Shown here: positions 12,332-29,368 of the stretch, piece after piece | Position numbering within the stretch: position 1 is the stretch's first letter | How the letters are laid out: each line of letters begins with the position of its first letter | Origin: Armatimonadia bacterium | GTDB lineage: Bacteria > Armatimonadota > Zipacnadia > Zipacnadales > UBA11051 | DNA length: 33,797 nt | Assembly: GCA_039683575.1 (NCBI GenBank) | Contig: JBDKRC010000239.1 | Coordinates: forward strand, 1-33,797 | Reading direction: 5' to 3' | Made by a program: the position numbers and the translations under genes | Notes under the pieces: generated by a model | The model's input: the letters and a program-made list of their open reading frames with translations, nothing else | Databases searched by the model: none | What the model was told of the DNA's origin: nothing

Positions 12332-12480
12332 GTTAGGCCCCTTTCGGATTGCAGCGTTACTATTCGGCGGGAGGTGGGGGAGACCTTTGCGGGGCAGCCA
12401 TCACGGTCAACAGGAGATCGGGGTTGGGCGTCGAAATACCATTTGTCGCACTTGCAGCCACTACAAAGGACCCACAGAGT

Positions 12481-15141
12481 ATGAAGAAGCTTGTCTCGGG
12501 CGTTTGTCTCCTGGTTGCGCTGACTGCCCTGGGGGTGGCGCCGAAGGCATGGGCTCAGGGGGGCTTTAGCCCGGAGAAGTACTTGATGCGGCAAAAGGAG
12601 CTTCCGGCGCCTTATCGGGTGCATGATGAGGAGAACCGATTTCCCGCGTGGTCGTGGGATGATGGGCATTGGTACCGGGCTGGCAAGGATCCGGAGGGGA
12701 TGACGCCCAAGGATTTCGACTATAAGTTCATTCATGAGGAGATCTGGAACGGCAACACCAACACCATCCAGGTCGAGGGGGCGGTGTTTGGGCGGGCGGA
12801 TGTCGCGGAGTTGCGGATGTCTGATCAGGCGAAGGTGAGAGACTACAAAAAGGTGGGTATTGGCGGGGCGCAGGCGCTGCATGAGACCAATGAGCAGGGG
12901 GAATTTCCCCGTTACTACATCCAGATCGGCACTGTTTTCGGGTATGTATACGGCGGGCAGCAGTCTGGCGAGGACACGCTGGCCATTGCGAAGCTATGGG
13001 TCCAGAAGCTGCAGGGGCAGCTGACTGAGCAGCCTCAGCCGAAGCCGCCGACGCCGACTGCGACACCCGCTAAGGACGTCCCGGACCTGCATGTCGATCA
13101 GGACGGGTTCGCGTTGACACTGGCGAGCGACAACACGGTACTGGAGTATGAGCCTGCCGCCGACAAGCAGAGCGTGGCAGTGCAGATCGAGAACCGCAGT
13201 CAGAAGGTCCCTGCCACCAATGCCTTCATCCAGCTCTACGTTGCCTCTCCGGCGGGTTCCACGCCTCAGCCTGTGGGGAAGCAGCTTGCGCTGCCTACCA
13301 TTCCTGCCGGAGGCAAGATTGCGGTCGGCACGACGTGGGACCTCGGCGGGCAAAACCAGGTCGATGTCGAGCTTTGGGTCAAGGTCTACATCCCCTACAC
13401 CGATGACGCCAATCCCGCCGATAGCCAGGCAAGCCTCAAGTGCAGCATTCGCTATGCCCACAACGGCCGGCGGGCCTTCAGTTGGTTCGATGACACGTAC
13501 CGTTTCGTGAACTTCGGTTACAAGGACCGCGAGACCGAGGAACTGGTTGAGGGCGTGGTGGCTACCGTCCTCGGCAACCTGCAGGGAGGGTCAGAGGTCA
13601 GCAAAGTCTGGCAGAAGCTGACCTTCGCCGCTATCTACCAGCGCGTCGAGTCATACATGAACAAGAGCCTCAATGCCGGCGCAGGTGGGCATTGCTACGG
13701 CATGGCGGCCACCGCGGGGCTGTACTTCGAAGGGACCGCTGCGCCACCGCTGGGGAAGGCCACACCAGCCCTGACCCTCGAAGAGGCCTCTACCAACATC
13801 AACATCTACCACCGCGCGCAGATGCTGCCGGTGCTGCAGGCGCTGTCGAGCAAGGGCGACTATCTGCAGCGCGATCTCAGTCCACGCAATTGCTATAACT
13901 GGGTCAAGAATGCCCTGGACCCGTCACGCCTGCCGCCCATAGTTGAGTTCTTCGGGCGCGACCCCGGCGACAAGACCACCATCATCGGCCACGCTGTGTT
14001 GGCCTACAAGCTGATTGAGGTCGAGGGGCGCGATCCGGTGATTTACATCTACGATCCCAACTACCCGGCCAGCGCGGTCAAAGCGCCGCACCCCATGCCG
14101 CAGATTTCCCTCAAGATCGACAAAGCCACCTGGGCCAATCCGACATATATGGGTTACGACTGGGCTGTAGGCGAGTGGATAGGCGCGCGTCGTGTGGCGC
14201 GGGAGATCTCGGTGGACATGGCCAATGCCCTTGGTCCGCAGCTTAAGGCGATGGCGTATACCGCAGTCAATGCGCTCAACCAGGGGAAGCAGTTGATGGC
14301 CATCCTGCGCTGCCCGGCGGATGTCTGTTTCACTGACGCCCAGGGCCGCCGCACCGGGACGGTCAACGGCAAGCTGGTCAACGAGATACCGGGAGCCGAG
14401 CCGGGGTCCGTGGGTGAAGTGGAGATGTACTTGCTGCCACTGGGGCAGAATTACAGTGTGACCGTAACCGGTACCGGCGCCGGGACGATGTCACTCGACC
14501 TGCTGCAGGCCCCGACGGCAGGGCAGCTTACGGCTGCCTCTTTCGAGCGGGTGCCAGTGCAGAAGGGCGGGCAGCTTGCCGGGACGCTGACGGGTACCGG
14601 ACAGCTTGCGAACCTCAAGTCGGGGTCGCAGACGTACCCGGTGCAGTGGAGTGGCAGCGCCAACCTGGCCGCCTTCAACCCTGGCGACGGCACGAGCACG
14701 CCGCCGCCGACAACGACGGCTCCTCCCGTCCAGCCGAAGCCTCCCACGCCGCCCACACAGCCTGCCACTGCCAATCCTCCCCCGGCTGCGTCCACCCCGC
14801 CCGTTGCGACAGACCCTGACCGCGTCGTATTGTCGAGGCCGCAGGCGAACCAGCTTGTTGACACGACAATCGAGGTCGTCGGACGGGCGCGGCCCCAGGC
14901 TACCGTGGTCGTCTATACCATTGTCTATAACGCCCAGAATGGGCAGATGATCAGCACCATCCCGGGCCTCCGCGCGAAGACGAAAGACAACGGCGAGCTG
15001 GCATGGGTCATCGCGGCGCCGCGGGTCAGCTTCGGTCAGCCCAACACACCATTGATTTTCGAACTGCACGCGCGGATCATCCGGAGCAATGGCACTGACG
15101 GGCCCGAGACGGTGGTTCGGGTTCGGGGGGCGTCGATCTAG
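12481..15141 (+). CDS. Large secreted multidomain protein (signal peptide, CARDB/Ig-like domain, putative papain-like cysteine protease core, Pro/Thr linkers)
   Basis: MKKLVSGVCLLVALTALGVAPKAWA signal peptide; GHCYGMAA, GHAVLAY and IYIYDPN motifs; two Pro/Thr-rich linkers. Confidence 0.75.
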   Translation: MKKLVSGVCLLVALTALGVAPKAWAQGGFSPEKYLMRQKELPAPYRVHDEENRFPAWSWDDGHWYRAGKDPEGMTPKDFDYKFIHEEIWNGNTNTIQVEGAVFGRADVAELRMSDQAKVRDYKKVGIGGAQALHETNEQGEFPRYYIQIGTVFGYVYGGQQSGEDTLAIAKLWVQKLQGQLTEQPQPKPPTPTATPAKDVPDLHVDQDGFALTLASDNTVLEYEPAADKQSVAVQIENRSQKVPATNAFIQLYVASPAGSTPQPVGKQLALPTIPAGGKIAVGTTWDLGGQNQVDVELWVKVYIPYTDDANPADSQASLKCSIRYAHNGRRAFSWFDDTYRFVNFGYKDRETEELVEGVVATVLGNLQGGSEVSKVWQKLTFAAIYQRVESYMNKSLNAGAGGHCYGMAATAGLYFEGTAAPPLGKATPALTLEEASTNINIYHRAQMLPVLQALSSKGDYLQRDLSPRNCYNWVKNALDPSRLPPIVEFFGRDPGDKTTIIGHAVLAYKLIEVEGRDPVIYIYDPNYPASAVKAPHPMPQISLKIDKATWANPTYMGYDWAVGEWIGARRVAREISVDMANALGPQLKAMAYTAVNALNQGKQLMAILRCPADVCFTDAQGRRTGTVNGKLVNEIPGAEPGSVGEVEMYLLPLGQNYSVTVTGTGAGTMSLDLLQAPTAGQLTAASFERVPVQKGGQLAGTLTGTGQLANLKSGSQTYPVQWSGSANLAAFNPGDGTSTPPPTTTAPPVQPKPPTPPTQPATANPPPAASTPPVATDPDRVVLSRPQANQLVDTTIEVVGRARPQATVVVYTIVYNAQNGQMISTIPGLRAKTKDNGELAWVIAAPRVSFGQPNTPLIFELHARIIRSNGTDGPETVVRVRGASI

Positions 15142-15220: not shown

Positions 15221-15250
15221 TTGAACCTCCCCTTGCTGGCGCGTGTTCAA
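15221..15250 (+). promoter_or_regulatory. Candidate ECF-type promoter/operator TTGAAC-N18-GTTCAA
   Basis: GAAC -35-like element and (C)GT/GTT -10-like element upstream of the ECF gene; the two halves are also an inverted repeat. Confidence 0.35.
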
Positions 15251-15277: not shown

Positions 15278-15853
15278 ATGCTGACCGATCATGAACTGAT
15301 GGCCAATCTGAAGCGGGGTGACCAGGAAGCCTTCATCGTCCTGGCCCAGCGTCACAAGCCGTGGCTGACGCGCGTGCTGTATCACCTGTTCTGGGATAGG
15401 GAAGAGGCGGATGACGGGGCACAGGAAGTGCTCTTGCGAGTGTGGCTCGCACGGCGAGACTATGAGCCGACGGCCGCGTTTCGGACGTACCTCTTCTCAA
15501 TCGCCCGCAACTACTGGCACAACCGCGCCCAGCGGGTGATCAAGCGCAACCCGGTGGTGTCACTGGAGGATCAGTTCGGGCCGGGAGCGCGCGAGATCAT
15601 CGAGGGATTCGCGGATAGGTCGCCCACGACAGAGCAGGTAGTGATGCAGCGCTGGGAGCTGTTCCAGATCAGGCGCGCCGTGGACCAACTTCCGGAAAAG
15701 CAGCGGCTCGTGTTCATTCTGAGCCAGTTCGGGGGGATGAAGTATGCGGAAGTGGCGGAGTTGCTGGGGATACCGGAGGGCACGGTGAAGTCGCGGATGG
15801 CGGCGGCCGTGCAGAGTCTGAGAGTGAAGCTAACCTCTATCGGAGGGCAGTAA
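15278..15853 (+). CDS. ECF RNA polymerase sigma-70 factor
   Basis: Region 2 (EEADDGAQEVLLRVW, FRTYLFSIARN) and region 4 (LPEKQRLVFIL..GMKYAEVAELLGIPEGTVKSR). Confidence 0.95.
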   Translation: MLTDHELMANLKRGDQEAFIVLAQRHKPWLTRVLYHLFWDREEADDGAQEVLLRVWLARRDYEPTAAFRTYLFSIARNYWHNRAQRVIKRNPVVSLEDQFGPGAREIIEGFADRSPTTEQVVMQRWELFQIRRAVDQLPEKQRLVFILSQFGGMKYAEVAELLGIPEGTVKSRMAAAVQSLRVKLTSIGGQ

Positions 15854-15855
15854 CC

Positions 15856-17181
15856 ATGAAATGTGAAGCCTGTCGGGAGCTGATGACGGCTTATCTGAAG
15901 GAAGAGTTGGAGGCGGGGGAGAGGGAAACGGTGGAGGAGCATCTGGCGAGTTGCGCCGAGTGCGCGGAGGAGTGTGCGGGGGCGCGGAAGGTGCTGGCGG
16001 CGGTGGATCAGGCGAGCGACGAGCCGATCGTGCGTATCCTCGACAATATCATCGACGAGGCCATAGGCCATGGGGCCAGTGACATTCATATCCAGCCGCG
16101 GAGCGAAGTCACCGTGATTCGGCTGCGGATTGATGGGGTGCTGCACGACAAGATGCTGCTCCCTACCTACACCCTTCAGCCCCTGGTGAACCGCGTCAAG
16201 CTGATGGCGGGGCTGAGCCTCACCACGCAGGGCGTGCCGCAGGACGGTCGGATACAGACAAAGATAGAGGAGCGGGATTACGACCTGCGGGTGTCGGTCG
16301 TGCCGAGCGTGCTGGGGGAGACGGTGGTTATGCGGATTCTGGACAAGAGCGGCGTGAGCATGTCGCTGGACCAGGTTCAGTTCGTGGGCGAACAGCGCAA
16401 GCAGCTCGAGCAGATGATGCATTCGCCGAGCGGGTTGCTGCTGGTCACGGGACCTACGGGCAGCGGGAAGACGACCACGCTTTACGCGGTCATGCATGAG
16501 CTGAACAAGGTGGAGAACAACCTGATGTCCATCGAGGACCCGGTGGAGTACCAGTTCGATGGCTTCACCCAGATTCAGGTGAATCGCGCGGCGGGGCTGG
16601 ACTTCAAAGGGGCCATGCGCAGCATCCTGCGCCAGGACCCGGATATCATACTGTGCGGCGAGATAAGGGACCGGGAGACTGCCGAACTGGTCGTGCAGGC
16701 GGCGATAACCGGGCATCTGGTGCTCAGCACGCTGCACACGAATGAAGCGATCAGTGTGATCCGGCGGCTGCTGGACATCGGCATCGAGAGGTTCCTGATC
16801 GCTCAGAGCCTGCTGGGGGCGACGGCGCAACGGCTGTTCCGCCGCGTGTGCCCCGATTGCCGGGAGAAGTATGAGGCAAGTGAGGCTGAGCGCGCGTGGT
16901 TGCAGGCGGCGGGGATTGCCGAGATACCGGCGAAGCTGTGGCGGTCGAAGGGCTGCGAAAAGTGCCGCAGTACGGGCTACAAGGGCCGGCTGGCCGTGTA
17001 TGAGGTTTTCCTGATGGATCAGGAGATCGTGAACCTGATGGTGAGGAACACGCCGCTGGAGGAGATAGAGAAGCTGGCGGCGACGAAGGTGAAGTCCATG
17101 AAGCTGACGGCGGCGGAGAAAGTGGTGGCGGGGGAGACTACGGCGGCGGAGGCGATGCGGGTGCTGGCGTTTCTGACGTAA
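15856..17181 (+). CDS. zf-HC2 (ZAS anti-sigma) zinc finger fused to a GspE/PilB-family ATPase
   Basis: N-terminal C...L.AYL..EL...ER..VEEHLASCAEC, then ASDIHI, PQDGR, Walker A GPTGSGKT, IEDPVE, LRQDPD, Walker B ILCGEIRD, GHLVLSTLH, CPDC/GCEKC, GYKGRLAVYE. Confidence 0.92.
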   Translation: MKCEACRELMTAYLKEELEAGERETVEEHLASCAECAEECAGARKVLAAVDQASDEPIVRILDNIIDEAIGHGASDIHIQPRSEVTVIRLRIDGVLHDKMLLPTYTLQPLVNRVKLMAGLSLTTQGVPQDGRIQTKIEERDYDLRVSVVPSVLGETVVMRILDKSGVSMSLDQVQFVGEQRKQLEQMMHSPSGLLLVTGPTGSGKTTTLYAVMHELNKVENNLMSIEDPVEYQFDGFTQIQVNRAAGLDFKGAMRSILRQDPDIILCGEIRDRETAELVVQAAITGHLVLSTLHTNEAISVIRRLLDIGIERFLIAQSLLGATAQRLFRRVCPDCREKYEASEAERAWLQAAGIAEIPAKLWRSKGCEKCRSTGYKGRLAVYEVFLMDQEIVNLMVRNTPLEEIEKLAATKVKSMKLTAAEKVVAGETTAAEAMRVLAFLT

Positions 17182-17198
17182 CACGATCGAAACGGATT

Positions 17199-17234
17199 GC
17201 CGGGAGCGGCCGAGAAGCCGCTCCCGGCTTCTTT
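17199..17234 (+). terminator. Intrinsic terminator ending the ECF/ATPase operon
   Basis: GCCGGGAGCGGC-6 nt-GCCGCTCCCGGC followed by TTCTTT. Confidence 0.75.
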
Positions 17235-18241
17235 CAGACGGAGACTTTCTCAAACACCCTCAGGAAATTGCCCCCCAGTATCTTCAGTACCGTCTCCTCG
17301 TCTAATCCCCGACCCACCAGCGCCTCTGTGAACTCCACCAGCCGCCCCATGTGAGGCGGAATCGGGATCTCTTCTTTCGGCAACCCATCGAAATCCGACC
17401 CGAAGCCGATGTGGTCAGGGCCTACGAGATTGATCACATGCTCCACCTGATCCATCAGCCGCTCCATCGAGGGGCTGTCCTGATGGATGAACTTGGTGTA
17501 AAACGCGACGCCCATGACGCCGCCGTTGTCGGCCAGCGCCCGAATCTGATCGTCCGTGAGGCCCCGCCAGTGCGGACAGACGCTGAAAACGCAGCCGTGG
17601 GAGAAGATGCAGGGCTTGCTGGAGACTTCCAGGGCATCGTAAAAGGTGCGGTCGTTGGCGTGGGCGAGGTCTACTACAATTCCTAGTTGATTGGCGGCGT
17701 TGATGACCTCGCGCCCAAAGTCAGTCAGCCCGCCCATTTCGCGGCGTGCTGTCTCGCGTTCGTCGGCGGTGGTATAGGCGAAGGGGCTCTTGTCCACCTG
17801 CAGCGCGTGCTCGTATTCGTTCTGGGCTTCACCATGGGTCAGATTTGCGACGCGCAGGCCGAGGCGGTGCATCAGGCTCATGACGCGGAGGCTGCCCTGC
17901 AAGCACGTGCAACTCTCCACCTGGGGCAGAAACGCCACTTTGCCGCCTGCTTTGGCGGCGCGTATGTCAGCGGCGCTGCGGGCGAGTGTGAAGTCATTGG
18001 GGTATTCGTCCAGGTGCCAGTAAATCGCGTCCCAGAGTTCCAGGGCGGCGTCGAGGTCGCGCGCGCCGACGTAGTTGTTGAAGGCCGTCAGGCCGGCCTC
18101 CTTGAGGCGCGGCAGGTCCACGTGGTACCGCTCATCCGGCGGCCCGAAGTCCATCGGATCGCCATTCTGGCGCTTCAGTACGAGTGAGTCGTTATGTCCG
18201 TCGATGATGATGGCTTGCTGGTGGATTTCGCGGGGGTTCAT
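17234..18241 (-). CDS. Membrane dipeptidase (peptidase M19)
   Basis: IIDGHND, GLTDFGREVI, VVDLAH, IFSH, GFGSDFDG, ILGGNFLRVF. Start at ATG 18241 preferred over 18298. Confidence 0.92.
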   Translation of the reverse strand: MNPREIHQQAIIIDGHNDSLVLKRQNGDPMDFGPPDERYHVDLPRLKEAGLTAFNNYVGARDLDAALELWDAIYWHLDEYPNDFTLARSAADIRAAKAGGKVAFLPQVESCTCLQGSLRVMSLMHRLGLRVANLTHGEAQNEYEHALQVDKSPFAYTTADERETARREMGGLTDFGREVINAANQLGIVVDLAHANDRTFYDALEVSSKPCIFSHGCVFSVCPHWRGLTDDQIRALADNGGVMGVAFYTKFIHQDSPSMERLMDQVEHVINLVGPDHIGFGSDFDGLPKEEIPIPPHMGRLVEFTEALVGRGLDEETVLKILGGNFLRVFEKVSV

Positions 18242-18401
18242 GGGGGATAGATTGTCGAGATAGGGCGGCAAGTCCTCCTCTGCGGTCGCCATCCCCATAC
18301 ATCGATATAATACAGATTATGTCAAATCTAAGCGCACTTTTCCACAACAAAAGACCCACCACACACCCACCACCTCCTCCCAAAACAACCCTCGCGCGCT
18401 G

Positions 18402-19298
18402 CTAAACGCCCTCGTGGGCCGGCCGTTGGGGCCCGCTGGGCTGAACTGAGGGCTGCTCCACATACTCAGCGTAGTCAGCCGGCTCGATCCGGTGCCCGTA
18501 CAGCCTTGCGTACACCTGGGTAAGCTCCGCCCCAAAGAACACGATCAGCGCCGAGTAGTACACCAGCAGCAATAGCAGCACCAGCGACCCGGCGGCCCCG
18601 TAGGCCGACGCGATGTGGCTGTACGTGAGGTACAACCCGATGCCATAGCGGCCGGCAGCAAACAGCACCCCCGTAATCGTCGCCCCAATCCATACATCAC
18701 TCCACCCAATCTTCGTATCCGGCAGGAATTTGAACACCATCGCAAACAGCGCGATGAAGAATGCCAGCCCCAGAATCGTCTCCGCCGTGCCCACCCAGAC
18801 CATGTGAGCAGGCAGCACCGCCCTCAATATCCAGCTAAAGAGCACCGCCGCGAGCATCAGCCCCCCCAGAATCAGCACCATCAAGAACGTGGCGCCACGT
18901 TGCCGGGCCCACGTCCACACATTCAGCCCAGGCTTCGGGCGCACGTCCCATATCTTATTCAGGGCGCTCTGCAGTTGCACGAAGACCGCCGTGGCGGCCG
19001 TCAGCAGCACCACCCAACCAAATATTGACGAAGTTGCGGCCACATTGCGATCAGTGTTCACATTCTGGAGAATTGTGCCGATGGTCTGGCTCACCTGCGG
19101 CCCCGCCGCCTGCTCGATCTTTCGCACGAAGTCACGCTGAGCCGCCGGGTCTATTCGCCCTGCTGCCGACAACAGGATGATCACCAGCGGCGATAGTGAC
19201 AGCACCGTGAAGAACGCGACTGCGGCCGCATGGACTACCGCTTCATCAGCGACAAACTCCATCGCTGCCGTCTTGATGATCTCCACGATACGTTTCAC
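18402..19298 (-). CDS. YihY/BrkB family membrane protein
   Basis: AAAVAFFTVLSLSP, LQSALNKIW, FKFLPD, YGAAGSLV.LLL.VYYSA..FFGAE; multiple TM helices. Confidence 0.92.
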   Translation of the reverse strand: MKRIVEIIKTAAMEFVADEAVVHAAAVAFFTVLSLSPLVIILLSAAGRIDPAAQRDFVRKIEQAAGPQVSQTIGTILQNVNTDRNVAATSSIFGWVVLLTAATAVFVQLQSALNKIWDVRPKPGLNVWTWARQRGATFLMVLILGGLMLAAVLFSWILRAVLPAHMVWVGTAETILGLAFFIALFAMVFKFLPDTKIGWSDVWIGATITGVLFAAGRYGIGLYLTYSHIASAYGAAGSLVLLLLLVYYSALIVFFGAELTQVYARLYGHRIEPADYAEYVEQPSVQPSGPQRPAHEGV

Positions 19299-19394
19299 AA
19301 ATCCTCACCTGCCGCCCTACGGGGGCGCCCTTGCCCCCGCTTCTTACCACGCTGATTTTCCCTCCCAAGTTCAGTCAGCGCGGCAAAACGGCAG

Positions 19395-19421
19395 TCAAGA
19401 CCGCTCGCGTGCTGCCGAAGA
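19395..19421 (+). promoter_or_regulatory. sigma28 (FliA/WhiG)-like promoter TCAA-N15-GCCGAAGA
   Basis: Matches the spacing of TAAA-N15-GCCGATAA; ends 16 nt before the fliJ ATG, with a GGAGG RBS in between. Confidence 0.55.
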
Positions 19422-19437
19422 GTCTACGGGAGGTCAT

Positions 19438-19911
19438 ATGCCGCGATTCCATTTTCCCTTGCAGCAGCTTCTTGACCTGAGGACGACCGCGGAGAAACGG
19501 TCCCGGTCTGACCTCGTTGCGACCGAGCGCGCCCTGTCACTTGAGCGGGTCCGCCTCGATGAACTGAGTCGCTCGTGCGATCAGGCACTGCAGGTCACGG
19601 CCGCCGTCCCCGGACACCCGGTCGAAACCGACCTCCTTCTCAACAACGGCCTGCACCTCGCCCGTCTGAGGCTGAGGATGGCCGCACAGCAGGCCCGCGT
19701 GCAACAGTGCTCCGACCTGGAGGAGGCACGCCGCTATGAGCATAGCCGCCTCAGTCGGGAGCGCCAGGTGGTTGAGCGCTTGAAGGAGCGCCGGCACGAG
19801 GAGTTCCGTGAGCGCGTCGCTCACGCCGAGACAAGCGCTCTGGATGAAGCTGCCATGATGGTCTTCGCCAGACAGAAGACGGAGTGGCAATCATCTTCCA
19901 CCACCGACTGA
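19438..19911 (+). CDS. fliJ: Flagellar export chaperone FliJ
   Basis: MPRFHFPLQQLLDLR, coiled coil, ERLKERR...ETSALDE; GGAGG RBS; flagellar context. Confidence 0.85.
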   Translation: MPRFHFPLQQLLDLRTTAEKRSRSDLVATERALSLERVRLDELSRSCDQALQVTAAVPGHPVETDLLLNNGLHLARLRLRMAAQQARVQQCSDLEEARRYEHSRLSRERQVVERLKERRHEEFRERVAHAETSALDEAAMMVFARQKTEWQSSSTTD

Positions 19912-19991
19912 CGCCACGTCGCCGCGAGTCCTGCAACAAGCATCGGAACCATCGTCTATCGTGTCCGCAGGCAATCCGGGAGGGAGCCCCT

Positions 19992-20573
19992 GTGTTGGTA
20001 CATGGTCTGTCGGCGACGCTTGGCCGCGTCTCCGAGATACAGCAGAAGCTAAAGGCCTTGCAGCCCTCAGACGTCACCGCGGTCACTGAGGCTGTCCCCG
20101 CAGCCCCCGGGAGCTTCGCCTCCGCCGTGGCCGAGGCCGAGAGTGCTTACCGTCCGACCAGAGCGCGCAAGACAGCTTTCCTCTCCCCCACCCGCTTCGA
20201 CGATCTCATCCGCACCACTGCCGCCAAGTATGGCGTTGATCCGGACCTCATCCATGCTGTGGTGCAGGCGGAATCCGGCTACGACCCCGACTGTCGCTCC
20301 GGGGCCGGCGCCCAGGGGCTTATGCAGCTAATGCCGGGCACCGCCCGCTCATTGGGGGTCAGCAACGCCTTTGATCCCTCCCAGAACCTCGACGGCGGCG
20401 TGCGTTACCTCCGCCAGCAGATCCAGCGCTTTGGCGAGATAGACCTTGCGCTTGCTGCCTACAACGCTGGTCCCGGCGCCGTCCAGGCTCACGACGGCAT
20501 TCCGCCGTACCGGGAGACCCAGGCTTACGTCAAGCGCGTCATGCAGAATCTCTGGCAGCGTAAGGGAGATTAG
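19992..20573 (+). CDS. Lytic transglycosylase (SLT domain)
   Basis: AVVQAESGY, GAQGLMQLMPGTA, LAAYNAGPG, IPPYRETQAYV. GTG start behind GGAGGGAG. Confidence 0.92.
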   Translation: MLVHGLSATLGRVSEIQQKLKALQPSDVTAVTEAVPAAPGSFASAVAEAESAYRPTRARKTAFLSPTRFDDLIRTTAAKYGVDPDLIHAVVQAESGYDPDCRSGAGAQGLMQLMPGTARSLGVSNAFDPSQNLDGGVRYLRQQIQRFGEIDLALAAYNAGPGAVQAHDGIPPYRETQAYVKRVMQNLWQRKGD

Positions 20574-20574
20574 G

Positions 20575-22317
20575 TTGACTCTGGCCGCGACGATGAGCCC
20601 CGGTCTGGAAGCGCTCCTGCCCGTGCTGCAACCCACGGCGGAGCCGCTTTTCGACGCCTCACTCCTGCCTGCTGAGTTGCCCGGCGATGATGAAGTGGTC
20701 GGACCGGATGACTTCAGCGCTCTTCTGGCTCTCGTAGTGCCGCCTCCAGCGGCGCCGTTGCCTCAGGTCCCCCCGGACACAAGCCCCCAGCCGGCTGGGC
20801 CCGACCAGATTTCCAGTGCACAGCGCTCGCAGACGGGCGCCGTCGTTGCCGCTCCGTACGAGCGTGGGGTAGTTCCGAATCTGCCTCCCATGACTAGCTC
20901 TGTGGAACCTGACCCTTTGACAACCGCGGGTGATTTGCGCGGGCAAGCCCCAGTGGCTGCGGTCCAGCCGAAGCCTGACCAGGTGGGCTTGGTTGTGCCT
21001 CCTGCGAACGACGTTGGGGAGGCGAACAGGGGCGCCCAGAAGACGGCTTCGAATGCGCCGCAGGTCCAGCGACCGCTGCTACAGGTTGAGCCGGCAATAG
21101 CCCCGCCGGCTCCCCTTCCCGCCGCGGTGCTGGCGCACGGTGAACTGGCCTCGACACGTCCTGCAACCAAAGATGAGCAGGCCATGGTGCAGCAGGTGTT
21201 GCCTTCCGGGCAGCCAGTCATGCCACAACAGATAACTGCCGCGGTCACCGTGCCACCGGCACCCCAGCAGACTGCCATGCCGATGGTCATGCGCCTTGAC
21301 GCACCGGCCTTGCCGCTACCCGTGATCCGTCGGCTGACAGGCCTTGCTCCACAGCCTGTTCAGACACGCTTGCCCAAGCCAGTGCCGGCACCTCCGGCCA
21401 GCGCCTCTGAACAGACGCAGCTGATGACGGCAGCCATCCAACCCGCAGATGAGGCGGCGCTTGTGCCTGCCTCGCCACAGCCAGTCGCCGCGCCAGCCAG
21501 CGCGCCGGTCATGCAAGCTGTTACAGCCCAAACCAAGCAGGTGCCCGAGTCTTCGGCCACACCCGCCATGCCTACCACACGCTTGGCGGAACTCGCCGAC
21601 ACGGTCGTCAGGCACATAGCTGTCGCCGTTGCAGCGCCTCCCGCCAAAGCGGCCTTGACCGCGCCTGAGCCCAGCGAGCAGGCCATCAAGCATCTCGCGA
21701 GGGCGGCGGAGCGCGCTCCAATGGCCTCTACTGTCGAGAAGGCCCCTGCGATCACCGCCGACGTCGAGCCTTCGCGACGGGAGGCGGCGGAACCGGGGCC
21801 GAGTAACTCAGCGGCCTCCCCCGCGCCCCAAGTCCTCAGCCAGACCTTGCAGGACGGCTTGCCAATCACTCCGACGGCGGCGCCCCAGTTCCAGCAGACA
21901 GTGCAGGGCCTGCCCGAGCGCGAAGTCTCCGCCGCCGAACGCGTCACGGCCCAGCCACAGGCTACCGAGACCCCGGACGAAGTGGTCCACCAGGTGCGCC
22001 TTACGCTCAGTCCGCCCGATCTGGGAGCCGTGACACTCCGCATCGAAACCCGTGGGCAGGAAGTCAGCGCGCACCTGGTCGTGGACCAACTCGTCGCCGG
22101 GCATGTGCTCCGGCAGGCCGAGACGGAAGTCCGCCAGTTGCTCCACAATCAGGGCCTGCAGATGGGCTCGTACGAAGTGGACTACCAGCAACCCCAGCAG
22201 CACCAACCACATCAGCGCCCGCTGCCCCTGGCGCTGCCCGGGAAAGCCATTGCCGTCCCGTCGCGGCCTCACGGCCGCCAGCCAAGGCAGGAGTCGGCCA
22301 TAGACGTCTTTGCCTGA
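20575..22317 (+). CDS. fliK: Flagellar hook-length control protein FliK
   Basis: Long Pro/Ala-rich region and C-terminal VRLTLSPPDLGAVTLRI...LHNQGL; TTG start with AAGGGAG RBS; precedes flgD. Confidence 0.85.
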   Translation: MTLAATMSPGLEALLPVLQPTAEPLFDASLLPAELPGDDEVVGPDDFSALLALVVPPPAAPLPQVPPDTSPQPAGPDQISSAQRSQTGAVVAAPYERGVVPNLPPMTSSVEPDPLTTAGDLRGQAPVAAVQPKPDQVGLVVPPANDVGEANRGAQKTASNAPQVQRPLLQVEPAIAPPAPLPAAVLAHGELASTRPATKDEQAMVQQVLPSGQPVMPQQITAAVTVPPAPQQTAMPMVMRLDAPALPLPVIRRLTGLAPQPVQTRLPKPVPAPPASASEQTQLMTAAIQPADEAALVPASPQPVAAPASAPVMQAVTAQTKQVPESSATPAMPTTRLAELADTVVRHIAVAVAAPPAKAALTAPEPSEQAIKHLARAAERAPMASTVEKAPAITADVEPSRREAAEPGPSNSAASPAPQVLSQTLQDGLPITPTAAPQFQQTVQGLPEREVSAAERVTAQPQATETPDEVVHQVRLTLSPPDLGAVTLRIETRGQEVSAHLVVDQLVAGHVLRQAETEVRQLLHNQGLQMGSYEVDYQQPQQHQPHQRPLPLALPGKAIAVPSRPHGRQPRQESAIDVFA

Positions 22318-22330
22318 AGAGGAAAACGCC

Positions 22331-22705
22331 ATGAATATCAGCGCGGTAAGCAGCAGCACGTCTGCTTCAACCACCACGGCCAGTAACAGCCTCGGCCCCG
22401 ATGCCTTCATGCGGCTGCTGATCGCTGAACTGCAGAATCAGGATCCGCTCAGCCCCATGGACACCCAGGCCATGCTTACCCAGCTTTCCACCATGGAGTT
22501 GGTCTCAGAAAGTCGTGCCGCACGCCAGAGCCAGGACATGGTACAGGCCATGGGCATGATGGGACGGACGGTCGCCTGGCAGGATTCGGACACGGGAGAC
22601 GTGTACTCCGGCACCGTGGATGCGGTGGTCAGAGATGGTTCAGATCCCGTGCTGATGGTCGGTGGCGTCCAGCTTACGCTCGAAGAGATCATCGCCGTGT
22701 CGTGA
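22331..22705 (+). CDS. flgD: Flagellar hook capping protein FlgD
   Basis: LGPDAFMRLLIAELQNQDPLSPMD...QL. Confidence 0.92.
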   Translation: MNISAVSSSTSASTTTASNSLGPDAFMRLLIAELQNQDPLSPMDTQAMLTQLSTMELVSESRAARQSQDMVQAMGMMGRTVAWQDSDTGDVYSGTVDAVVRDGSDPVLMVGGVQLTLEEIIAVS

Positions 22706-22738
22706 CACTCATTGTGAAGACAATCCCAGGAGGACAAC

Positions 22739-23968
22739 ATGAATCGTACGCTACTGGCCGGACTATCCGGAACACTCGCCAATCAGACCTACATTGATGT
22801 GCTGGGCAACAACGTCGCTAACGCCAACACCATCGGCTTCCGCGAAAGTCGCGTGACCTTCCAGGACGCCTTCTACCAGACCCTGAGCGGCGGCCGCGCG
22901 GGCGGTGACCTCGGCCTCGGCGGCATGGATCCCGCCCAAGTCGGCAGCGGCACCACTATCGGGCAGATTCAGACCGTGCACACTCAGGGCGCCATGCGGT
23001 ACAGCGGCTCGCCCCTGGATGCCGCCATCGAGGGCAATGGCATGTTCGTGCTCGACAACGGCAGCGGGGGCTATCTCTATACCCGCGATGGCGCCTTCAT
23101 TCTCGACAACAATCGAACCCTCGTCGCAGGCTCCAGCGGGCAGTGCGTGATGGGTTGGATGGCCCAGAACGGTACGGTCAATCCTACCGGCGAACCGACG
23201 GCTCTCACTTTCCCCCTGGGCCAGGTACGGCCGGGCAGCATGACGGGAAACGTGGAACTGGGAGGCAACCTTGACGCTGGTCTCGCCGCGGGGGACACGC
23301 GCACTGCCACCGTCTCCGCCTACGATTCGCTTGGGCTGTCGCATCAGGTGACGCTGACCTTCACCCGCGGCGCAGACGTCAACGAGTGGACGTGCCAGGG
23401 CGCCTGCGAGGGCACCACGGCCTCCGTCGATATGGCGTTCGATGGCACAGACGGCAGCCTGAGCAGTGGTGGGACGCTCAATCTCAGCGTGGCTCTCGGC
23501 AATGGGGCTGCCACTCCTCTGGCGCTCAATATCGACCTCTCTGAGGTCACACAGTTGAACCAGGAAGGCAGCGCGGTTGTGGTCCGGTCGCAGGATGGTT
23601 CGGCGAGCGCTACCCTCAGCGGCGTCAGTATCCTTGAGGGCGGGGGGATTCAGGGCGAGTACTCCGACGGTCACGTCGAGGTTCTGGGGCAGATCGCAGT
23701 GGCGGGTTTCGCCAACGTTGGCGGCCTCGTACGCCTCGGCAATAACCTCTACCAGGAGGGCGCCAACAGCGGCCAGACTGAGATCGGCGCCGCCGGCACG
23801 TCCGGACGCGGTGAAATCCGTTCGCGCCGGCTCGAAATGTCAAATGTGGACCTCACCCGCTCGTTCGTGGAGATCATGACCGCCCAGCGGGGCTTTCAGG
23901 CCAGCACGCGTGTTATCTCAGCGGCTAACCGGATGCTGGATGACGTCATGCAGCTCAACATCGGCTAA
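22739..23968 (+). CDS. flgE: Flagellar hook protein FlgE
   Basis: GNNVANANTIGF, DAAIEGNG, YTRDGAF, LEMSNVDL..FVEIMTAQRGFQA. Confidence 0.93.
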   Translation: MNRTLLAGLSGTLANQTYIDVLGNNVANANTIGFRESRVTFQDAFYQTLSGGRAGGDLGLGGMDPAQVGSGTTIGQIQTVHTQGAMRYSGSPLDAAIEGNGMFVLDNGSGGYLYTRDGAFILDNNRTLVAGSSGQCVMGWMAQNGTVNPTGEPTALTFPLGQVRPGSMTGNVELGGNLDAGLAAGDTRTATVSAYDSLGLSHQVTLTFTRGADVNEWTCQGACEGTTASVDMAFDGTDGSLSSGGTLNLSVALGNGAATPLALNIDLSEVTQLNQEGSAVVVRSQDGSASATLSGVSILEGGGIQGEYSDGHVEVLGQIAVAGFANVGGLVRLGNNLYQEGANSGQTEIGAAGTSGRGEIRSRRLEMSNVDLTRSFVEIMTAQRGFQASTRVISAANRMLDDVMQLNIG

Positions 23969-23997
23969 CCCCCTAGCGGCCTCGCTTCTTTGGCGGT

Positions 23998-24040
23998 AAA
24001 GCACGAGCGGTCACCGATATCGACCGCTCGTGCTTTTTTT
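23998..24040 (+). terminator. Intrinsic terminator after flgE
   Basis: GCACGAGCGGTC-9 nt-GACCGCTCGTGC followed by T7. Confidence 0.85.
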
Positions 24041-24092
24041 GCGTCCGCGCCAGTGCCTTCCTGGCACGGAGCTTGCAGTAGTTCCTCCTGAC

Positions 24093-24323
24093 ATGATCAC
24101 CCTAACACGCCTGAACGGCTCTCCCATCTGCGTCAACGCTTTCCTCATAGAGCACATCGAGGAAACGCCCGACACCGTGATCACCCTGACCAATGGCCAT
24201 CACTTCCTGGTGAGGGAATCCGTCGACGAAATAGTCACTGCCGCGACGGGCTTTCTCGGCGGCCTGCGCCAGCATGACATAGACCCAGTGACCGCCGGCC
24301 AACTCGGCCGCGTTGCCCAGTAA
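24093..24323 (+). CDS. flbD: Flagellar FlbD/SwrD family protein
   Basis: MITLTRLNG...NAFLIEHIEETPDTVITLTNG..VRES. Confidence 0.9.
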   Translation: MITLTRLNGSPICVNAFLIEHIEETPDTVITLTNGHHFLVRESVDEIVTAATGFLGGLRQHDIDPVTAGQLGRVAQ

Positions 24324-24333
24324 GGAAGATATT

Positions 24334-25140
24334 GTGGATCTAGGTACCCTTATCGGTCTGGTGGCTGCTTTCGGGGCCCTGGGCGCCTCTGTGGTGATGG
24401 AGGGCGGGAGCCTTCAGGCTCTCGTCAGTCAGCCCGCTCTGATAATCGTCTTCGGCGGCACCCTTGGTGCAACCCTCGTCAGCGTCCCGCTCAAGGACTT
24501 CCTGCGCATGCCCGGGCTGCTCAAGCTCGCGTTCGTCCCGCAGTCGTTCAACCACGTCGGGACCGCCAAAGACATCGTGCGCCTGGCCGGTCTCGCACGC
24601 CGCAAAGGCCTGCTACACCTCGAATCCGAGGCGGCGGAACTCAAGGATCCGTTCCTGACCAAGGGCCTCGCGCTGGTGATTGATGGCACCGATGCCGACA
24701 TGATCCGCGAGACGATGGAAACCGAGATCATGGCAATGGAGACCCGCCACAAGGCCGGTGCCAAGCTCTTCGCCCTCATGGGCGGCCTTGCCCCGACAAT
24801 GGGCGTCATAGGCACGGTAATGGGTCTGGTCAACATGCTTGCTAACGTAAACGACCCCTCCACCATGGGTCCTGCCATCGCCACGGCCTTCCTGGCCACT
24901 CTCTACGGGGTGGCGTCCGCCAACCTGCTCTTCCTGCCAATCTCCAGCAAGCTCGCCATCCGCAGCGAGGAAGAGACGCACCTGTGCGAGATCCTGCTGG
25001 AGGGCCTGATGAGCCTACAGGCGGGCCACAGCCCGATGATGGTCGAGGAACGGCTGAAGTCCTTCCTCAAGCCCAAGGACCGCAACTGGGGCCGCGAAGG
25101 CGGCAATGACGATGATCAGCCGCAGATCGAGGCCGCCTGA
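24334..25140 (+). CDS. motA: Flagellar stator protein MotA/PomA
   Basis: IVFGGTLGA, ARRKGLLHLE, APTMGVIGTVMGL, ATLYGV..ANL; GTG start with TAAGGA RBS. Confidence 0.95.
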   Translation: MDLGTLIGLVAAFGALGASVVMEGGSLQALVSQPALIIVFGGTLGATLVSVPLKDFLRMPGLLKLAFVPQSFNHVGTAKDIVRLAGLARRKGLLHLESEAAELKDPFLTKGLALVIDGTDADMIRETMETEIMAMETRHKAGAKLFALMGGLAPTMGVIGTVMGLVNMLANVNDPSTMGPAIATAFLATLYGVASANLLFLPISSKLAIRSEEETHLCEILLEGLMSLQAGHSPMMVEERLKSFLKPKDRNWGREGGNDDDQPQIEAA

Positions 25141-25170
25141 CAACCTTCTCTGCCGTGAGACGACATACCC

Positions 25171-26019
25171 ATGGCCAAACGCAAACAACAACACGCCGAA
25201 CATGAGAACGCCGAACGTTGGCTGCTGACCTATGCCGACATGATTACGCTCCTCATGGCCTTCTTCATCATGCTCTACAGCATGAGCCAGCTTGATATCA
25301 GGAAGTTCGCCGCCGTCGCTGGCTCCGTCCGCGCGGAGCTCGGCGGTACTGGGGTACTTGAGGGTGCACAGGGCGTCGGATCGGGGTCGGGCTCGGGGAT
25401 TGATATGGGCATGAATGGCCTCGCGCCCTCGCTCGGCACCGACGTATCCGCGCAACTGCGGCGGGCTGTCGAGGCCGAGATGAAGGCCGCCTCCGCCTCG
25501 CAGGTGCAGGTTATCCAAGACGGCAGCACGGTTCGAGTCAGGATGCCTGCCGGGAGCTTGTACTTCGAGAAGGGCAGCGCCAGCCTCACTCCGCAGGCGC
25601 GCCGCGTCCTGCTTGCTCTGGCCCATACCCTGCGCAAGCAGCCGTGTGGCGTCCGCGTAGAGGGCCACACCTGCAACCTGCCTATCCACACTGTGGAATT
25701 CCCTTCCAACTGGGAGCTTTCTGCCGCGCGGGCCAGCAACACCGCGCTGTTCCTCGTCCGCGAGGGCGGCCTACCATCCGACCACTGCTCCTTCATGGGT
25801 CTAGCCGACCGCAAACCCCTCGTGCCGAACGTCTCGGAGATCAACCGCCGCCGCAATCGCCGCGTCGAACTGATCCTTCAACCGCTGGCCGCTGATCCGC
25901 CCGCCGACAAAGCCGCCCGCCCCACCGCGGCCACGCCAGAGCCTCAACCCAGCGCCTTGCCGCCTGCCATCGACATCACCACATCCTCCACTGAAGGGAC
26001 CACGGAGGTTGCCCCATGA
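25171..26019 (+). CDS. motB: Flagellar stator protein MotB (OmpA-like C-terminal domain)
   Basis: RWLLTYADMITLLMAFF, VEGHT, NWELSAARA, NRRVEL. Confidence 0.95.
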   Translation: MAKRKQQHAEHENAERWLLTYADMITLLMAFFIMLYSMSQLDIRKFAAVAGSVRAELGGTGVLEGAQGVGSGSGSGIDMGMNGLAPSLGTDVSAQLRRAVEAEMKAASASQVQVIQDGSTVRVRMPAGSLYFEKGSASLTPQARRVLLALAHTLRKQPCGVRVEGHTCNLPIHTVEFPSNWELSAARASNTALFLVREGGLPSDHCSFMGLADRKPLVPNVSEINRRRNRRVELILQPLAADPPADKAARPTAATPEPQPSALPPAIDITTSSTEGTTEVAP

Positions 26020-26567
26020 CCAGACTTGCCTGTCGAGCCGGAAAGCTCATGATCATCGCTGTCATCTGCGCCGGCGCTGTCGGCGTTGTCGGTGGCATCA
26101 TTGCTTCGCCAAAGCTTCTCAAGCACAAGCCCTCGACCACCGCGAGAGCGGAGAAGACGCAGGATCACAAGGAGAGGAAAGCGGAGGCCAGGGGGACGCG
26201 GGCGGAGGAAGACGAGGTAGCGGGTGGCGGGCACGCGACCATCGTGCCGTTGGGGGATTTCCTGGTCAATCTCGACGCGGGGTCAAGCGGCCGCTACCTG
26301 CGCGCTGAGGTTGCCATGGCGCTGGTAGACCTACCGGAGCCGAAGAAGGGGGGCCACGGCGGCGGAAAGGGCCCAGGCATACCGGAGGGCGACATCACTC
26401 TCGCCCGCGACCGCGTCGTCGCGGTTCTTTCCGCAGGCGATTTCGTCTCCCTCAAGACCGCTGCCGGCAAGGACAAGCTTAAGGCCCGCGTGCTCGACAA
26501 GCTCAGTGAGGCCCTGCCCCAGTATGACATCAGTGAAGTCCTCTTCACCTCGTTCGTGATGCAGTAA
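26016..26567 (+). CDS. fliL: Flagellar basal body-associated protein FliL
   Basis: N-terminal TM helix, FLVNL, GKDKLK, VLFTSFVMQ C-terminus. Confidence 0.9.
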   Translation: MTRLACRAGKLMIIAVICAGAVGVVGGIIASPKLLKHKPSTTARAEKTQDHKERKAEARGTRAEEDEVAGGGHATIVPLGDFLVNLDAGSSGRYLRAEVAMALVDLPEPKKGGHGGGKGPGIPEGDITLARDRVVAVLSAGDFVSLKTAAGKDKLKARVLDKLSEALPQYDISEVLFTSFVMQ

Positions 26568-26577
26568 GGAGATCACT

Positions 26578-26898
26578 ATGGGCGAAACCCCTGCACCCAA
26601 CCAGGAAGTGCCAGCACTTGCCGCCGGACGCCCGGACCTGGCTAATCTCGCGGCGATGCTCGATGTGCCGCTGCGCATCACGGTCGAACTTGGCCGGGCC
26701 GAGTTGCCTCTGGCGGAGGTTCTGGCCCTCAAGCCCGGCTCGGTGGTCGAACTGGACCGCTTCCCGGGCGAGCCGCTGGACCTTTACGCTAATGGCCGCC
26801 TCGTCGCGCGCGGCGAGATCATCGTCCTCAACGACATCTTCGGCTTCCGCATCACCGATATTCTGATGACCCCAACCGAGGCGGTGAATGCCCGATGA
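26578..26898 (+). CDS. fliN: Flagellar motor switch protein FliN
   Basis: LDVPLRITVELGR, GSVVELD, NGRLVARGE, FGFRIT (SpoA domain only). Confidence 0.93.
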   Translation: MGETPAPNQEVPALAAGRPDLANLAAMLDVPLRITVELGRAELPLAEVLALKPGSVVELDRFPGEPLDLYANGRLVARGEIIVLNDIFGFRITDILMTPTEAVNAR

Positions 26899-27548
26899 CA
26901 AGTGAAGCCAAACGCCGCCGCACCACCAACCCGTCCACCTTCAACTGGCGCCTGCTCATCGCCGCCGGCTCGGTCACGCTCCTGCTCGCCCTCTGGATGC
27001 AGCCCGGGAACGCACGACCGGTGCAATGGGATGAGGAGAAGTCCGCCGCCGCAACCGTCGAGAAGCCTGCCACGGCCGGACCCGCGCGGGTCTCCGTACT
27101 CGACCTGATCGGCAAGGTCAGCCTCGCGGTCCTGCTTGTCTACGGCCTCAGCTTCGGCCTCGCTCACGCCCGCAAGCTTGGCTTCGGTAAGAGCTTGATG
27201 CCCGTGGTGACGCCCGATGACAACCGCCGCCTGCAGCTTTGCGAGAGTCTTGCGCTCGGCAAACTTGGCACAGTCGTGCATCTCATCGAGGTGGACGGCA
27301 AGCCCCTGGTCATCGGCGCCTGCGCTGAACAGCTTTTCCCGCTCTGGCAGGCACCCTTGGCCGCCGAGGACACCAGCAGCTTCCGGCCGGTCAAAGCGCT
27401 GTCGGAGGCGGCCAAGCCCACAGCCAAACCCAGCGTTTCATCTGAACAGCCGCTCTTCCAGCACGGTTTCGGGCAGCCCGCGCGCGCTGAGTCCGATTGG
27501 GCCCAGCAGCGCACCCAACTCATAAGCTCCCTGCTACAAAGCCAATGA
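26895..27548 (+). CDS. fliO: Flagellar biosynthesis protein FliO/FliZ
   Basis: TM segments, ESLALG..VVHLIEVDGK.LVIG; located between fliN and fliP. Confidence 0.75.
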   Translation: MTSEAKRRRTTNPSTFNWRLLIAAGSVTLLLALWMQPGNARPVQWDEEKSAAATVEKPATAGPARVSVLDLIGKVSLAVLLVYGLSFGLAHARKLGFGKSLMPVVTPDDNRRLQLCESLALGKLGTVVHLIEVDGKPLVIGACAEQLFPLWQAPLAAEDTSSFRPVKALSEAAKPTAKPSVSSEQPLFQHGFGQPARAESDWAQQRTQLISSLLQSQ

Positions 27549-28282: not shown

Positions 28283-28296
28283 TCTGGAGCCAAACT

Positions 28297-28566: not shown

Positions 28567-28575
28567 GCCCTGCCC

Positions 28576-29352: not shown

Positions 29353-29368
29353 CGCGGGATCTCTAACC

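Follow-up and report, generated by a model that had tools for sequence, protein, structure and literature searches.

A sigma factor gene followed by an anti-sigma–ATPase fusion gene

We analyzed a 33,797-nt stretch of DNA from an Armatimonadia bacterium (hereafter the window; contig JBDKRC010000239.1 of assembly GCA_039683575.1) that carries a two-gene unit, in which the gene for an extracytoplasmic function (ECF) sigma factor is followed by a gene whose product joins a zinc-binding anti-sigma (ZAS) domain to a PilB/GspE-type secretion ATPase. A preliminary description, made from the window alone, had proposed that the second protein is an anti-sigma factor gated by its ATPase. The evidence gathered here supports sigma and fusion as a real, conserved unit. 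Its parts are as follows.

15222..15247, plus strand: ECF-type promoter-like motif, TGAACC-N15-GTGTT, 30 nt upstream of the sigma start codon
15278..15853, plus strand: gene for an ECF (group IV) sigma-70 factor, 191 amino acids
15856..17181, plus strand: anti-sigma::ATPase fusion gene, 441 amino acids, stop codon included in the coordinates
15856..16014, plus strand: ZAS-type zinc-binding anti-sigma domain, residues 1-53 (Pfam zf-HC2, profile comparison, AlphaFold2 (AF2) model)
16021..16350, plus strand: N2 domain of PilB/GspE-type ATPase, residues 56-165 (Pfam T2SSE, profile comparison, AF2 secondary structure)
16378..17181, plus strand: ATPase C-terminal domain, residues 175-441, with the stop codon (motifs, Foldseek)
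16450..16476, plus strand: Walker A, GPTGSGKTT, residues 199-207
16636..16671, plus strand: Walker B and catalytic Glu, DPDIILCGEIRD, residues 261-272
16849..16965, plus strand: tetracysteine motif, C332, C335, C367 and C370
17199..17228, plus strand: intrinsic-terminator-like hairpin, 12-pair stem with 11 G-C pairs, then TTCTTTC, closing the two-gene unit

The compact layout first described, two genes and a terminator, is borne out: both open reading frames (ORFs) and the hairpin are present, and the genes are separated by 2 nt (TAA CC ATG), with GGAGGG about 10 nt 5' of the fusion gene's ATG. The hairpin is common to the fusion gene and to a convergent gene for an M19 dipeptidase (17234..18298, minus strand; Pfam Peptidase_M19). 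Contigs from RNA libraries (X2, X4) are identical to the window over parts of both genes; RNA libraries can contain DNA, and the one such contig that crosses the gene boundary reaches 24 nt into the second gene, below the 31-nt rule that was applied.

The sigma gene product matches Pfam Sigma70_r2 (residues 22-84, E 5.5e-14) and Sigma70_r4_2 (129-180, E 2.8e-19) with no region 3, and thus has the ECF composition of sigma2 and sigma4 only within about 170-200 amino acids. It scores 98 bits against the sigma70-ECF model TIGR02937 (cut-off 42.9), and among proteins of solved structure SigH, AlgU, SigW and RpoE match it best (E about 1e-16). Its closest paralogue in the same genome is only 33.5% identical and is partnered by an ordinary short anti-sigma factor and an RseB-like gene; we therefore regard the window's sigma factor as a distinct orthologous line. 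The cognate anti-sigma gene of an ECF factor is co-located, usually directly downstream, and this is where the fusion gene lies.

As first described, a zinc anti-sigma motif gives way to a complete secretion-ATPase core by about residue 55 of the fusion protein: residues 3-37 match zf-HC2 (PF13490; E 3.5e-8, 33.8 bits, cut-off 22.2) and residues 52-435 match T2SSE (PF00437; E 1.5e-123). The translation and family alignment place the zinc motif at C3 and H29-x3-C33-x2-C36, the signature of class I ZAS domains (zf-HC2 with H-x3-C-x2-C and an upstream Cys or His ligand). In the AF2 model of the fusion (computed with 23 family members; mean predicted local distance difference test score (pLDDT) 90.9, predicted template modeling (TM) score 0.76), the anti-sigma domain forms helices at 3-14, 20-32 and 34-53, with pLDDT of 85-90. 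Comparison with a profile built on the family's N-termini gives a match to RslA (3hug_B) with E 3.4e-5. Structure alignment by VIA-align against 48,161 representative chains ranks RsiW (Z 7.3), RslA (Z 6.3) and MucA (Z 6.2) as the best three, all of them solved in complex with their own ECF sigma factors; Z values of 6-7 are common for helical models and are taken as corroboration only. The RsiW alignment (its residues 3-72 over model residues 2-76, 70 aligned, root mean square deviation 4.7 A at the middling Z of 7.3) would put the position of the fourth helix of class I domains on N2 helix 1 (56-71).

The remainder of the protein contains every ATPase element that had been read from it, namely N2, Walker A, Asp box (E227), Walker B, His box (H287/H294) and the tetracysteine zinc motif of the GspE/PilB subfamily, according to both Pfam and inspection of the motifs; this is the N2 plus C-terminal ATPase fold by which GspE/PilB proteins are recognized. 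The N-terminal profile reaches into N2: its residues 45-99 can be aligned with the beginning of that domain in PilB and GspE of solved structure (E 1.8e-12 to 1.5e-9), and in the AF2 model two residues separate the last anti-sigma helix, which ends at 53, from the first N2 helix. Foldseek matches the whole model to Geobacter PilB 5tsh (E 2e-47, TM 0.75/0.84) and Thermus PilF 5oiu (TM 0.78/0.89), and the fusion is 40-44% identical to solved PilB, PilF and EpsE, with TM of 0.75-0.9. As first described, no transmembrane helix is apparent: the highest mean Kyte-Doolittle hydropathy over 19 residues is 1.38.

The fusion departs from GspE or PilB proper in several respects. Pfam detects no MshEN/N1 domain (PF05157) in it, and does so in two canonical paralogues of the same genome; scores fall below the NCBIfam equivalog cut-offs for GspE (TIGR02533, 484 against 630) and PilB (TIGR02538, 436 against 676); and the neighboring platform, pilin or secretin genes are missing. 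On the last point the preliminary description, which saw no pilC/gspF/gspD or pilin gene adjoining, agrees with Pfam annotation: the window contains no T2SSF, secretin or pilin gene closer to the unit than about 14 kb. From these sequence comparisons, the fusion is best described as a candidate cytoplasmic anti-sigma factor, with a zinc domain taking the place of N1 on a PilB/GspE core.

The fusion and its sigma factor recur across the phylum

Because the source assembly is fragmented (352 contigs), we considered whether the fusion might be a singleton, owed to a recent deletion, to chimeric assembly or to a start codon called wrongly. A profile spanning the junction (positions ~1-99) matches 35 of 401 sampled Armatimonadota genomes, in 29 of 208 genera, so that the same junction is found in 34 other genomes of 28 further genera. 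Two of the carriers, G303 and G333, are single-contig genomes. Contigs from two DNA runs of related strains cross both joints, the sigma/fusion boundary (X3 record 15, at 15816-16064) and the anti-sigma/N2 boundary (X1 record 2, at 15952-16385). The reading frame is open, and AF2 is confident over the junction (pLDDT 85-91). Since the family recurs phylum-wide with its sigma gene alongside and DNA contigs bridge both boundaries, misassembly or recent deletion is excluded, and we give an artefact of any kind practically no chance.

A sigma orthologue (35-68% identity) adjoins the fusion in all 35 places outside the window's genome, which answers affirmatively the question of whether homologues sit behind ECF genes in several genomes. 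In 34 of these the orthologue is the next gene upstream, on the same strand; in the remaining place, genome G203, it lies about 380 nt downstream. Where the sigma stop was located (seven loci), its position ranges from 3 nt before the start of the fusion gene to 11 nt inside it. No other neighbor is conserved: the seven annotated loci show unrelated enzymes, transporters and glycoside-related proteins, with no conserved platform, pilin or secretin gene beside the pair. Only the sigma gene travels with the fusion, and the suggested tie to a pilus or type II secretion system (T2SS) locus accordingly found no backing in gene order.

Our distribution survey covers Armatimonadota genomes, and broader searches point to the same phylum. 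Among the best 120 homologues listed, 24 combine PF13490 and PF00437; the named fusions come from metagenome-assembled genomes of Armatimonadia or Armatimonadota, with one labeled Bacteroidota, and below them in the list come ordinary PilB proteins of about 590 amino acids with MshEN. The first 100 residues gave 2253 matches among 1.84 billion cluster representatives. By a family hidden Markov model, full-length fusions account for 28 of the best 150 representatives (50% clustering), and about twenty further representatives among these are fragments beginning at position 1. Cluster look-up of ten divergent family members returned Armatimonadetes/Armatimonadota names only. Among the matches to the pattern R[YL]RIDGV[LM]H, 80 contig loci were kept, and none of these 80 has a zf-HC2 match or a sigma neighbor; the pattern is common to all PilB/GspE and is uninformative on distribution outside the phylum.

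Several variants were observed. The anti-sigma domain is not N-terminal in P0003 (615 amino acids), P0144 (634) and P0133 (471); in P0003 a first copy of the anti-sigma domain with an N2 fragment precedes a complete second copy. Proteins P0143, P0148 and P0149, and about 25 more representatives, have some 300-470 amino acids and carry two or three tandem zf-HC2 domains resembling the anti-sigma domain of the fusion family (three repeats each in P0143 and P0148 according to Pfam). Finally, in three of 26 loci a second T2SSE ATPase gene lies directly 3' of the fusion (L135:572-1714, minus strand; L146; L148:5010-6200, plus strand). By Pfam, the second ATPases of L135 and L148 lack both N1 and anti-sigma domains; that of L146 is cut by a contig end. 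Such second ATPases may partner the fusion in mixed hexamers.

Conservation and divergence of the ATPase

Mean identity to the window's protein is similar along the length of the fusion: 46% for the anti-sigma domain, 44% for N2 and 48% for the ATPase domain. Over the 43 family rows of the alignment, the zinc ligands are kept almost throughout (C3 in 39 rows; H29, C33 and C36 in 41 each), as are the tetracysteines (42-43 rows), and the acidic residues E227, D261 and D263 are invariant. The catalytic residues behave differently. The Walker B Glu is replaced in 12 rows (Asp in 11, Leu in one), the Arg that follows it in 16 (Pro in 8), and the Walker A Lys by Arg in four, whereas all three are invariant in 35 canonical ATPases. 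Among the 42 family rows other than the window's protein, five of the 12 Glu-replaced rows also lack the usual Walker A Lys-Thr-Thr, which the rest keep. At all 20 scored motif positions, 19 of the 42 other family rows match the window's protein, and in the clade of the window, as in its own protein, every catalytic residue is present.

The claim that the ATPase is intact thus holds for the window's protein and fails for the family as a whole, about a third of the members examined having replaced catalytic residues; motor activity is therefore not the conserved property. What is conserved is the fold, the zinc sites, the acidic residues of the Asp box and Walker B and, in most rows, the P-loop; catalysis is not always retained. 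A divergent subgroup has GD(V/L/I)(P/S/D)D in place of GEIRD (P0134, P0191, P0139, P0178, P0156, P0188, P0132, P0142, P0158, P0129, P0196, P0161 and others), and some of its members have also changed the Walker A Lys to Arg and lost the second His-box histidine. Judging by these replacements, the fusions of the subgroup may be pseudo-ATPases, and the loss of catalytic residues suggests a nucleotide-binding switch or regulator rather than an obligatory motor.

A tree was built from the ATPase core with the anti-sigma columns removed (P0003, P0009, P0011, P0012, P0014, P0015, P0017, P0019, P0020, P0026, P0027, P0144 and P0194 were left out). It places all 43 fusion rows on one side of a single branch; the fusion character requires one change, against a mean of 25.9 in shuffled data, and none of 500 shuffles gave a value as low.

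We may also hypothesize that the protein is a working pilus or T2SS motor, in which the zinc finger serves as a docking or structural substitute for N1 and the sigma factor merely transcribes the ATPase gene, without being inhibited. The window's protein retains every catalytic motif, its fold matches PilB at TM 0.75-0.9, and platform genes (T2SSF) without an adjoining ATPase gene occur on three contigs of the window's genome (C331, C207 and C264). These PilC/GspF-like genes stand alone among unrelated metabolic genes (L193, L195 and L196). Against a motor, the N-terminal domain matches an anti-sigma family, by Pfam and by the profile match to RslA; the gene occupies the canonical anti-sigma position directly behind an ECF gene nearly everywhere; the components of a pilus or secretion machine are not conserved beside it; and Glu and Arg are replaced in 12 and 16 of 43 rows, as compared to none of the 35 canonical ATPases for either. 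We judge a plain motor to be improbable.

A conserved promoter motif upstream of the sigma gene

Autoregulatory promoters of ECF factors have an AAC-type -35 and a CGT-type -10 element. In 28 of 36 loci, GAACC is found no more than 200 nt upstream of the sigma gene; seven have none and one has no upstream sequence. In 24 of the 28, an element of the type (C/T)(G/A)T(T/A), read by eye, follows GAACC after 14-15 nt. The motif takes the form GAACCTTTT-N10-GC(A/G)TTC in many families, and in five other genomes this form, GAACCTTTT-N10-GCRTTC, occurs once per genome and always at the sigma promoter. With the strict pattern, the sigma promoter is likewise the only intergenic match in the window's genome (G000). 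The element at 15222..15247 is a putative autoregulatory promoter, and autoregulation of the operon appears likely. A motif whose only detectable target is its own operon also fits a sigma factor that simply transcribes the gene of a motor.

We searched for further targets with looser patterns. TGAACC-N14-16-[GC]TGTT has 8 matches in G000, where 8.9 are expected, and 33 in five relatives, where controls give 10. We examined 30 of the relatives' matches and the 8 of G000: sigma promoters apart, 36 of these 38 loci lie within ORFs by a crude ORF test. The exceptions are L164 (genome G235), where the match lies 5' of a 190-amino-acid ORF, and L174, a contig-end site with no ORF behind it. Allowing one mismatch in the GAACCTTTT pattern adds three sites, against two in controls. 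One of these mismatch copies, GAACTTTTT-N10-GCGTTC, was seen at locus position 1501 of L190 (G313:C89), in an AT-rich intergenic region 67 nt before the gene of a 372-amino-acid secreted protein; no other candidate for a further target was seen, and this one could be the site of a different ECF factor. In a position weight matrix scan of G000 the sigma promoter, which is the training site, comes top at 31.1, followed by a coding site at 20.7.

Genes for DUF1559 pseudopilin-like proteins had been put forward as possible targets of the sigma factor. The nearest pilus-type gene in the window, encoding an N_methyl+DUF1559 pseudopilin-like protein (692..1366, minus strand), has no such motif before it, and the conserved motif is seen only before the sigma gene. 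The suggestion is therefore not upheld.

A possible mechanism for sigma control

Taken together, the observations lead us to propose that sigma and fusion are probably a cognate ECF sigma/anti-sigma pair with the ATPase module as signal input. Our confidence differs between the parts of this proposal. We hold it quite probable that the two proteins are a pair; the chances that the ATPase module is the input seem to us evenly balanced; and we doubt that the unit is linked to an actual pilus or T2SS machine. In the mechanism we have in mind, the sigma factor would drive its own operon from the conserved GAACC...GTT promoter and would be held inactive by the anti-sigma domain. Its release would then depend on the ATPase module, through the nucleotide bound there, closure of the clamp between N2 and C-terminal domain, assembly of a hexamer, or docking to a partner. 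The N2 domain of PilB/GspE-type ATPases moves with nucleotide state and makes contacts between subunits. Because only two residues join N2 to the anti-sigma domain, its movement or packing could be transmitted to that domain, exposing or occluding the surface that binds sigma.

Several points weigh against this proposal. Sigma binding, the direction of signaling, the nature of the signal and the regulon are things that we infer. The anti-sigma domain has three helices, as opposed to four in class I domains; its VIA-align Z values to anti-sigma factors are middling (6-7); and when residues 1-100 are modeled alone (pLDDT 87), Foldseek matches to anti-sigma factors are weak (E 0.2-0.8). The branch that implies a single origin of the fusions has a Shimodaira-Hasegawa-like approximate likelihood ratio (SH-aLRT) support of 38. 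Pattern and weight matrix searches gave no convincing target promoter other than the operon's own. With all its catalytic residues intact, the window's own protein may yet function as a motor. Lastly, the conserved zinc motif equally allows a classical redox switch. Prediction of the complex between sigma and fusion, run without controls, gave a median score of 0.30 against a mark of 0.32 and speaks neither for nor against binding.

In a redox switch, oxidation or thiol stress at C3/H29/C33/C36 would free the zinc and the sigma factor, as in RsrA/SigR, and the ATPase would be an effector or scaffold; in a variant, sigma binding might hold the ATPase inactive. The H-x3-C-x2-C motif and its upstream Cys are indeed kept in nearly all family rows. 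The available text of a review of non-canonical ECF factors has soluble anti-sigma factors with a ZAS domain normally responding to oxidative stress (PMC8999054), and that of a co-evolution study finds the zinc motif in about 72% of soluble class I anti-sigma domains (PMC7406223). However, an ATPase module with nucleotide-binding motifs has been kept throughout the history of the family, which one would hardly expect of a passive appendage, and neither thioredoxin nor another redox gene is conserved beside the pair in the seven loci. Furthermore, a zinc motif by itself is no proof of redox sensing, as ChrR and RsiW both bind zinc and yet are not thiol switches. We consider a redox switch unlikely, and favor control of the sigma factor through the ATPase module.

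Comparison with known anti-sigma factors and secretion ATPases

The closest known counterparts on the anti-sigma side are the soluble or membrane-bound ZAS proteins of the RsrA/SigR, RshA/SigH and RslA/SigL pairs, with which the fusion shares its gene position 3' of an ECF sigma gene and an N-terminal helical domain with Cys...His-x3-Cys-x2-Cys. It differs from them in having three helices rather than four, followed after two residues by an ATPase of about 390 residues. ChrR, which pairs with SigE in Rhodobacter sphaeroides, has an N-terminal zinc anti-sigma domain and takes its signal through a C-terminal domain separate from it, the same logic as is proposed for the fusion. The C-terminal domain of ChrR is a cupin, whereas that of the fusion is a P-loop ATPase of the oligomeric secretion type with nucleotide-binding motifs; ChrR matches the family's N-terminal profile marginally (E 0.84).

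On the ATPase side, the fusion has in common with PilB, GspE and PilF the N2 and C-terminal domains, the Walker A and B motifs, the Asp and His boxes and the tetracysteine motif. Unlike them, it has no N1/MshEN domain, falls below the equivalog cut-offs and forms a cluster of its own on the ATPase core; its gene does not accompany those of a platform, pilin or secretin; and part of the family has lost the catalytic Glu or Arg. N1/MshEN is the part that docks to GspL or PilM or binds cyclic di-GMP, and the Foldseek matches of the fusion model include 4pht, a GspE-GspL complex. More distant parallels are conceptual only: FlgM, which acts on sigma-28, ties an anti-sigma factor to the state of filament assembly, and RsbW and SpoIIAB are ATP-binding anti-sigma kinases. 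FlgM, a small exported protein, and RsbW, a GHKL kinase, have no relation in sequence or fold to the fusion, whose anti-sigma domain is covalently part of a motor-type ATPase.

In full-text literature searches we found no published description of an ECF sigma factor with an anti-sigma::PilB/GspE-ATPase. The main text of the ECF re-classification (Casas-Pastor et al. 2021; PMC7826278) mentions neither ATPase, pilus and PilB nor Armatimonadetes; its supplementary group descriptions lie outside this scope and could bear on novelty. In the portion available to us, the class I anti-sigma co-evolution study (PMC7406223) mentions neither ATPase nor Armatimonadetes. The accessible text of the review of non-canonical ECF factors (PMC8999054) refers to ATPases only as AAA ATPases near group ECF257; it has conformational change, partner switch and a mechanosensing complex as mechanisms of soluble anti-sigma factors, and ZAS-regulated groups of unknown mechanism (ECF270 and ECF271). 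Within these limits, no described ECF group with this architecture was found, and the unit looks like an undescribed way of controlling a sigma factor.

Sigma factors of the ECF type rank among the most abundant signaling devices of bacteria, and the input of their anti-sigma factors is usually an open question. Here we have a phylum-wide family whose sensing part would be a motor-type ATPase, of a kind that is otherwise known from pilus assembly and T2SS alone. If the state of the ATPase gates the sigma factor, this would be a new class of ECF input, the nucleotide or oligomer state of a secretion ATPase, with a motor recruited as a switch. The divergent subgroup, which has lost Glu or Arg and mostly kept the P-loop, would then offer a natural series from motor to pseudo-enzyme. 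Being small, soluble and self-contained (promoter, sigma factor, regulator and terminator), the module should be easily tested in a heterologous host, and is possibly of use as an orthogonal switch.

Other possible pilus-related partners of ECF sigma factors in Armatimonadota

Another unusual sigma neighbor was observed in the window's own genome, on contig C234 (L194:5488-6802, minus strand). The gene of an ECF sigma factor (P0277, 197 amino acids) overlaps by 8 nt that of P0276, a protein of 244 amino acids with two T2SSF (PilC cytoplasmic-type) domains and no obvious membrane helix. Of 400 other genomes of the phylum, 22 encode a full-length relative of P0276; 11 loci were examined, and in 9 of them a sigma orthologue is directly upstream. 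P0276 may be another undescribed ECF partner. The fusion co-occurs with this soluble PilC-like module in 6 of the 22 module genomes, an association that is not strict and in which related genomes are not independent. In genome G292, 3.3 kb downstream of the fusion pair, an ECF gene (L040:5-685, minus strand) is followed by the gene of a zf-HC2 protein (L040:685-1230, minus strand). The latter, cut by the contig end, has zf-HC2 at residues 7-41 and a weak DUF1559/SBP_bac_10 match at 116-142 (23.2 bits, cut-off 23.3), and may be an anti-sigma factor with a pseudopilin-like part.

These cases suggest that parts of pilus machines have repeatedly been recruited as ECF sigma partners in Armatimonadota. 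In a wider and speculative form of this idea, to which we give rather low odds, type IV pilus and T2SS parts would constitute in this phylum a family of cytoplasmic ECF regulators (the fusion, the P0276 type and zf-HC2+DUF1559), the fusion being a sensor of nucleotide or assembly state that frees the sigma factor upon hexamer formation or docking to a platform. If true, the fusion would couple transcription to the state of a filament motor and so form a covalent analogue of the FlgM checkpoint; and, its own promoter being the only detectable one, it might tune its own supply to demand.

Genomic surroundings of the unit

Two kilobases downstream of the unit begins a cluster of flagellar genes, which was not found beside the pair in the annotated loci of other genomes.

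19177..30439, plus strand: flagellar gene cluster

The cluster comprises genes for a FliJ-like protein, an SLT transglycosylase, FliK, FlgD, FlgE, FlbD, MotA, MotB, FliL, FliN, an unassigned 217-amino-acid ORF, FliP, FliQ, FliR and FlhB. Directly 5' of the unit lies an ORF of 930 amino acids (12349..15141, plus strand) whose product probably has a signal peptide, contains Pro/Thr-rich linkers and matches nothing in Pfam. In the operon's leader, Rfam recognizes no RNA family. Elsewhere in the window it reports three matches to the Acido-Lenti-1 RNA motif (146..191, 211..256 and 1635..1680, plus strand; 38-40 bits, gathering threshold 37), which flank the DUF1559 gene at 692..1366.

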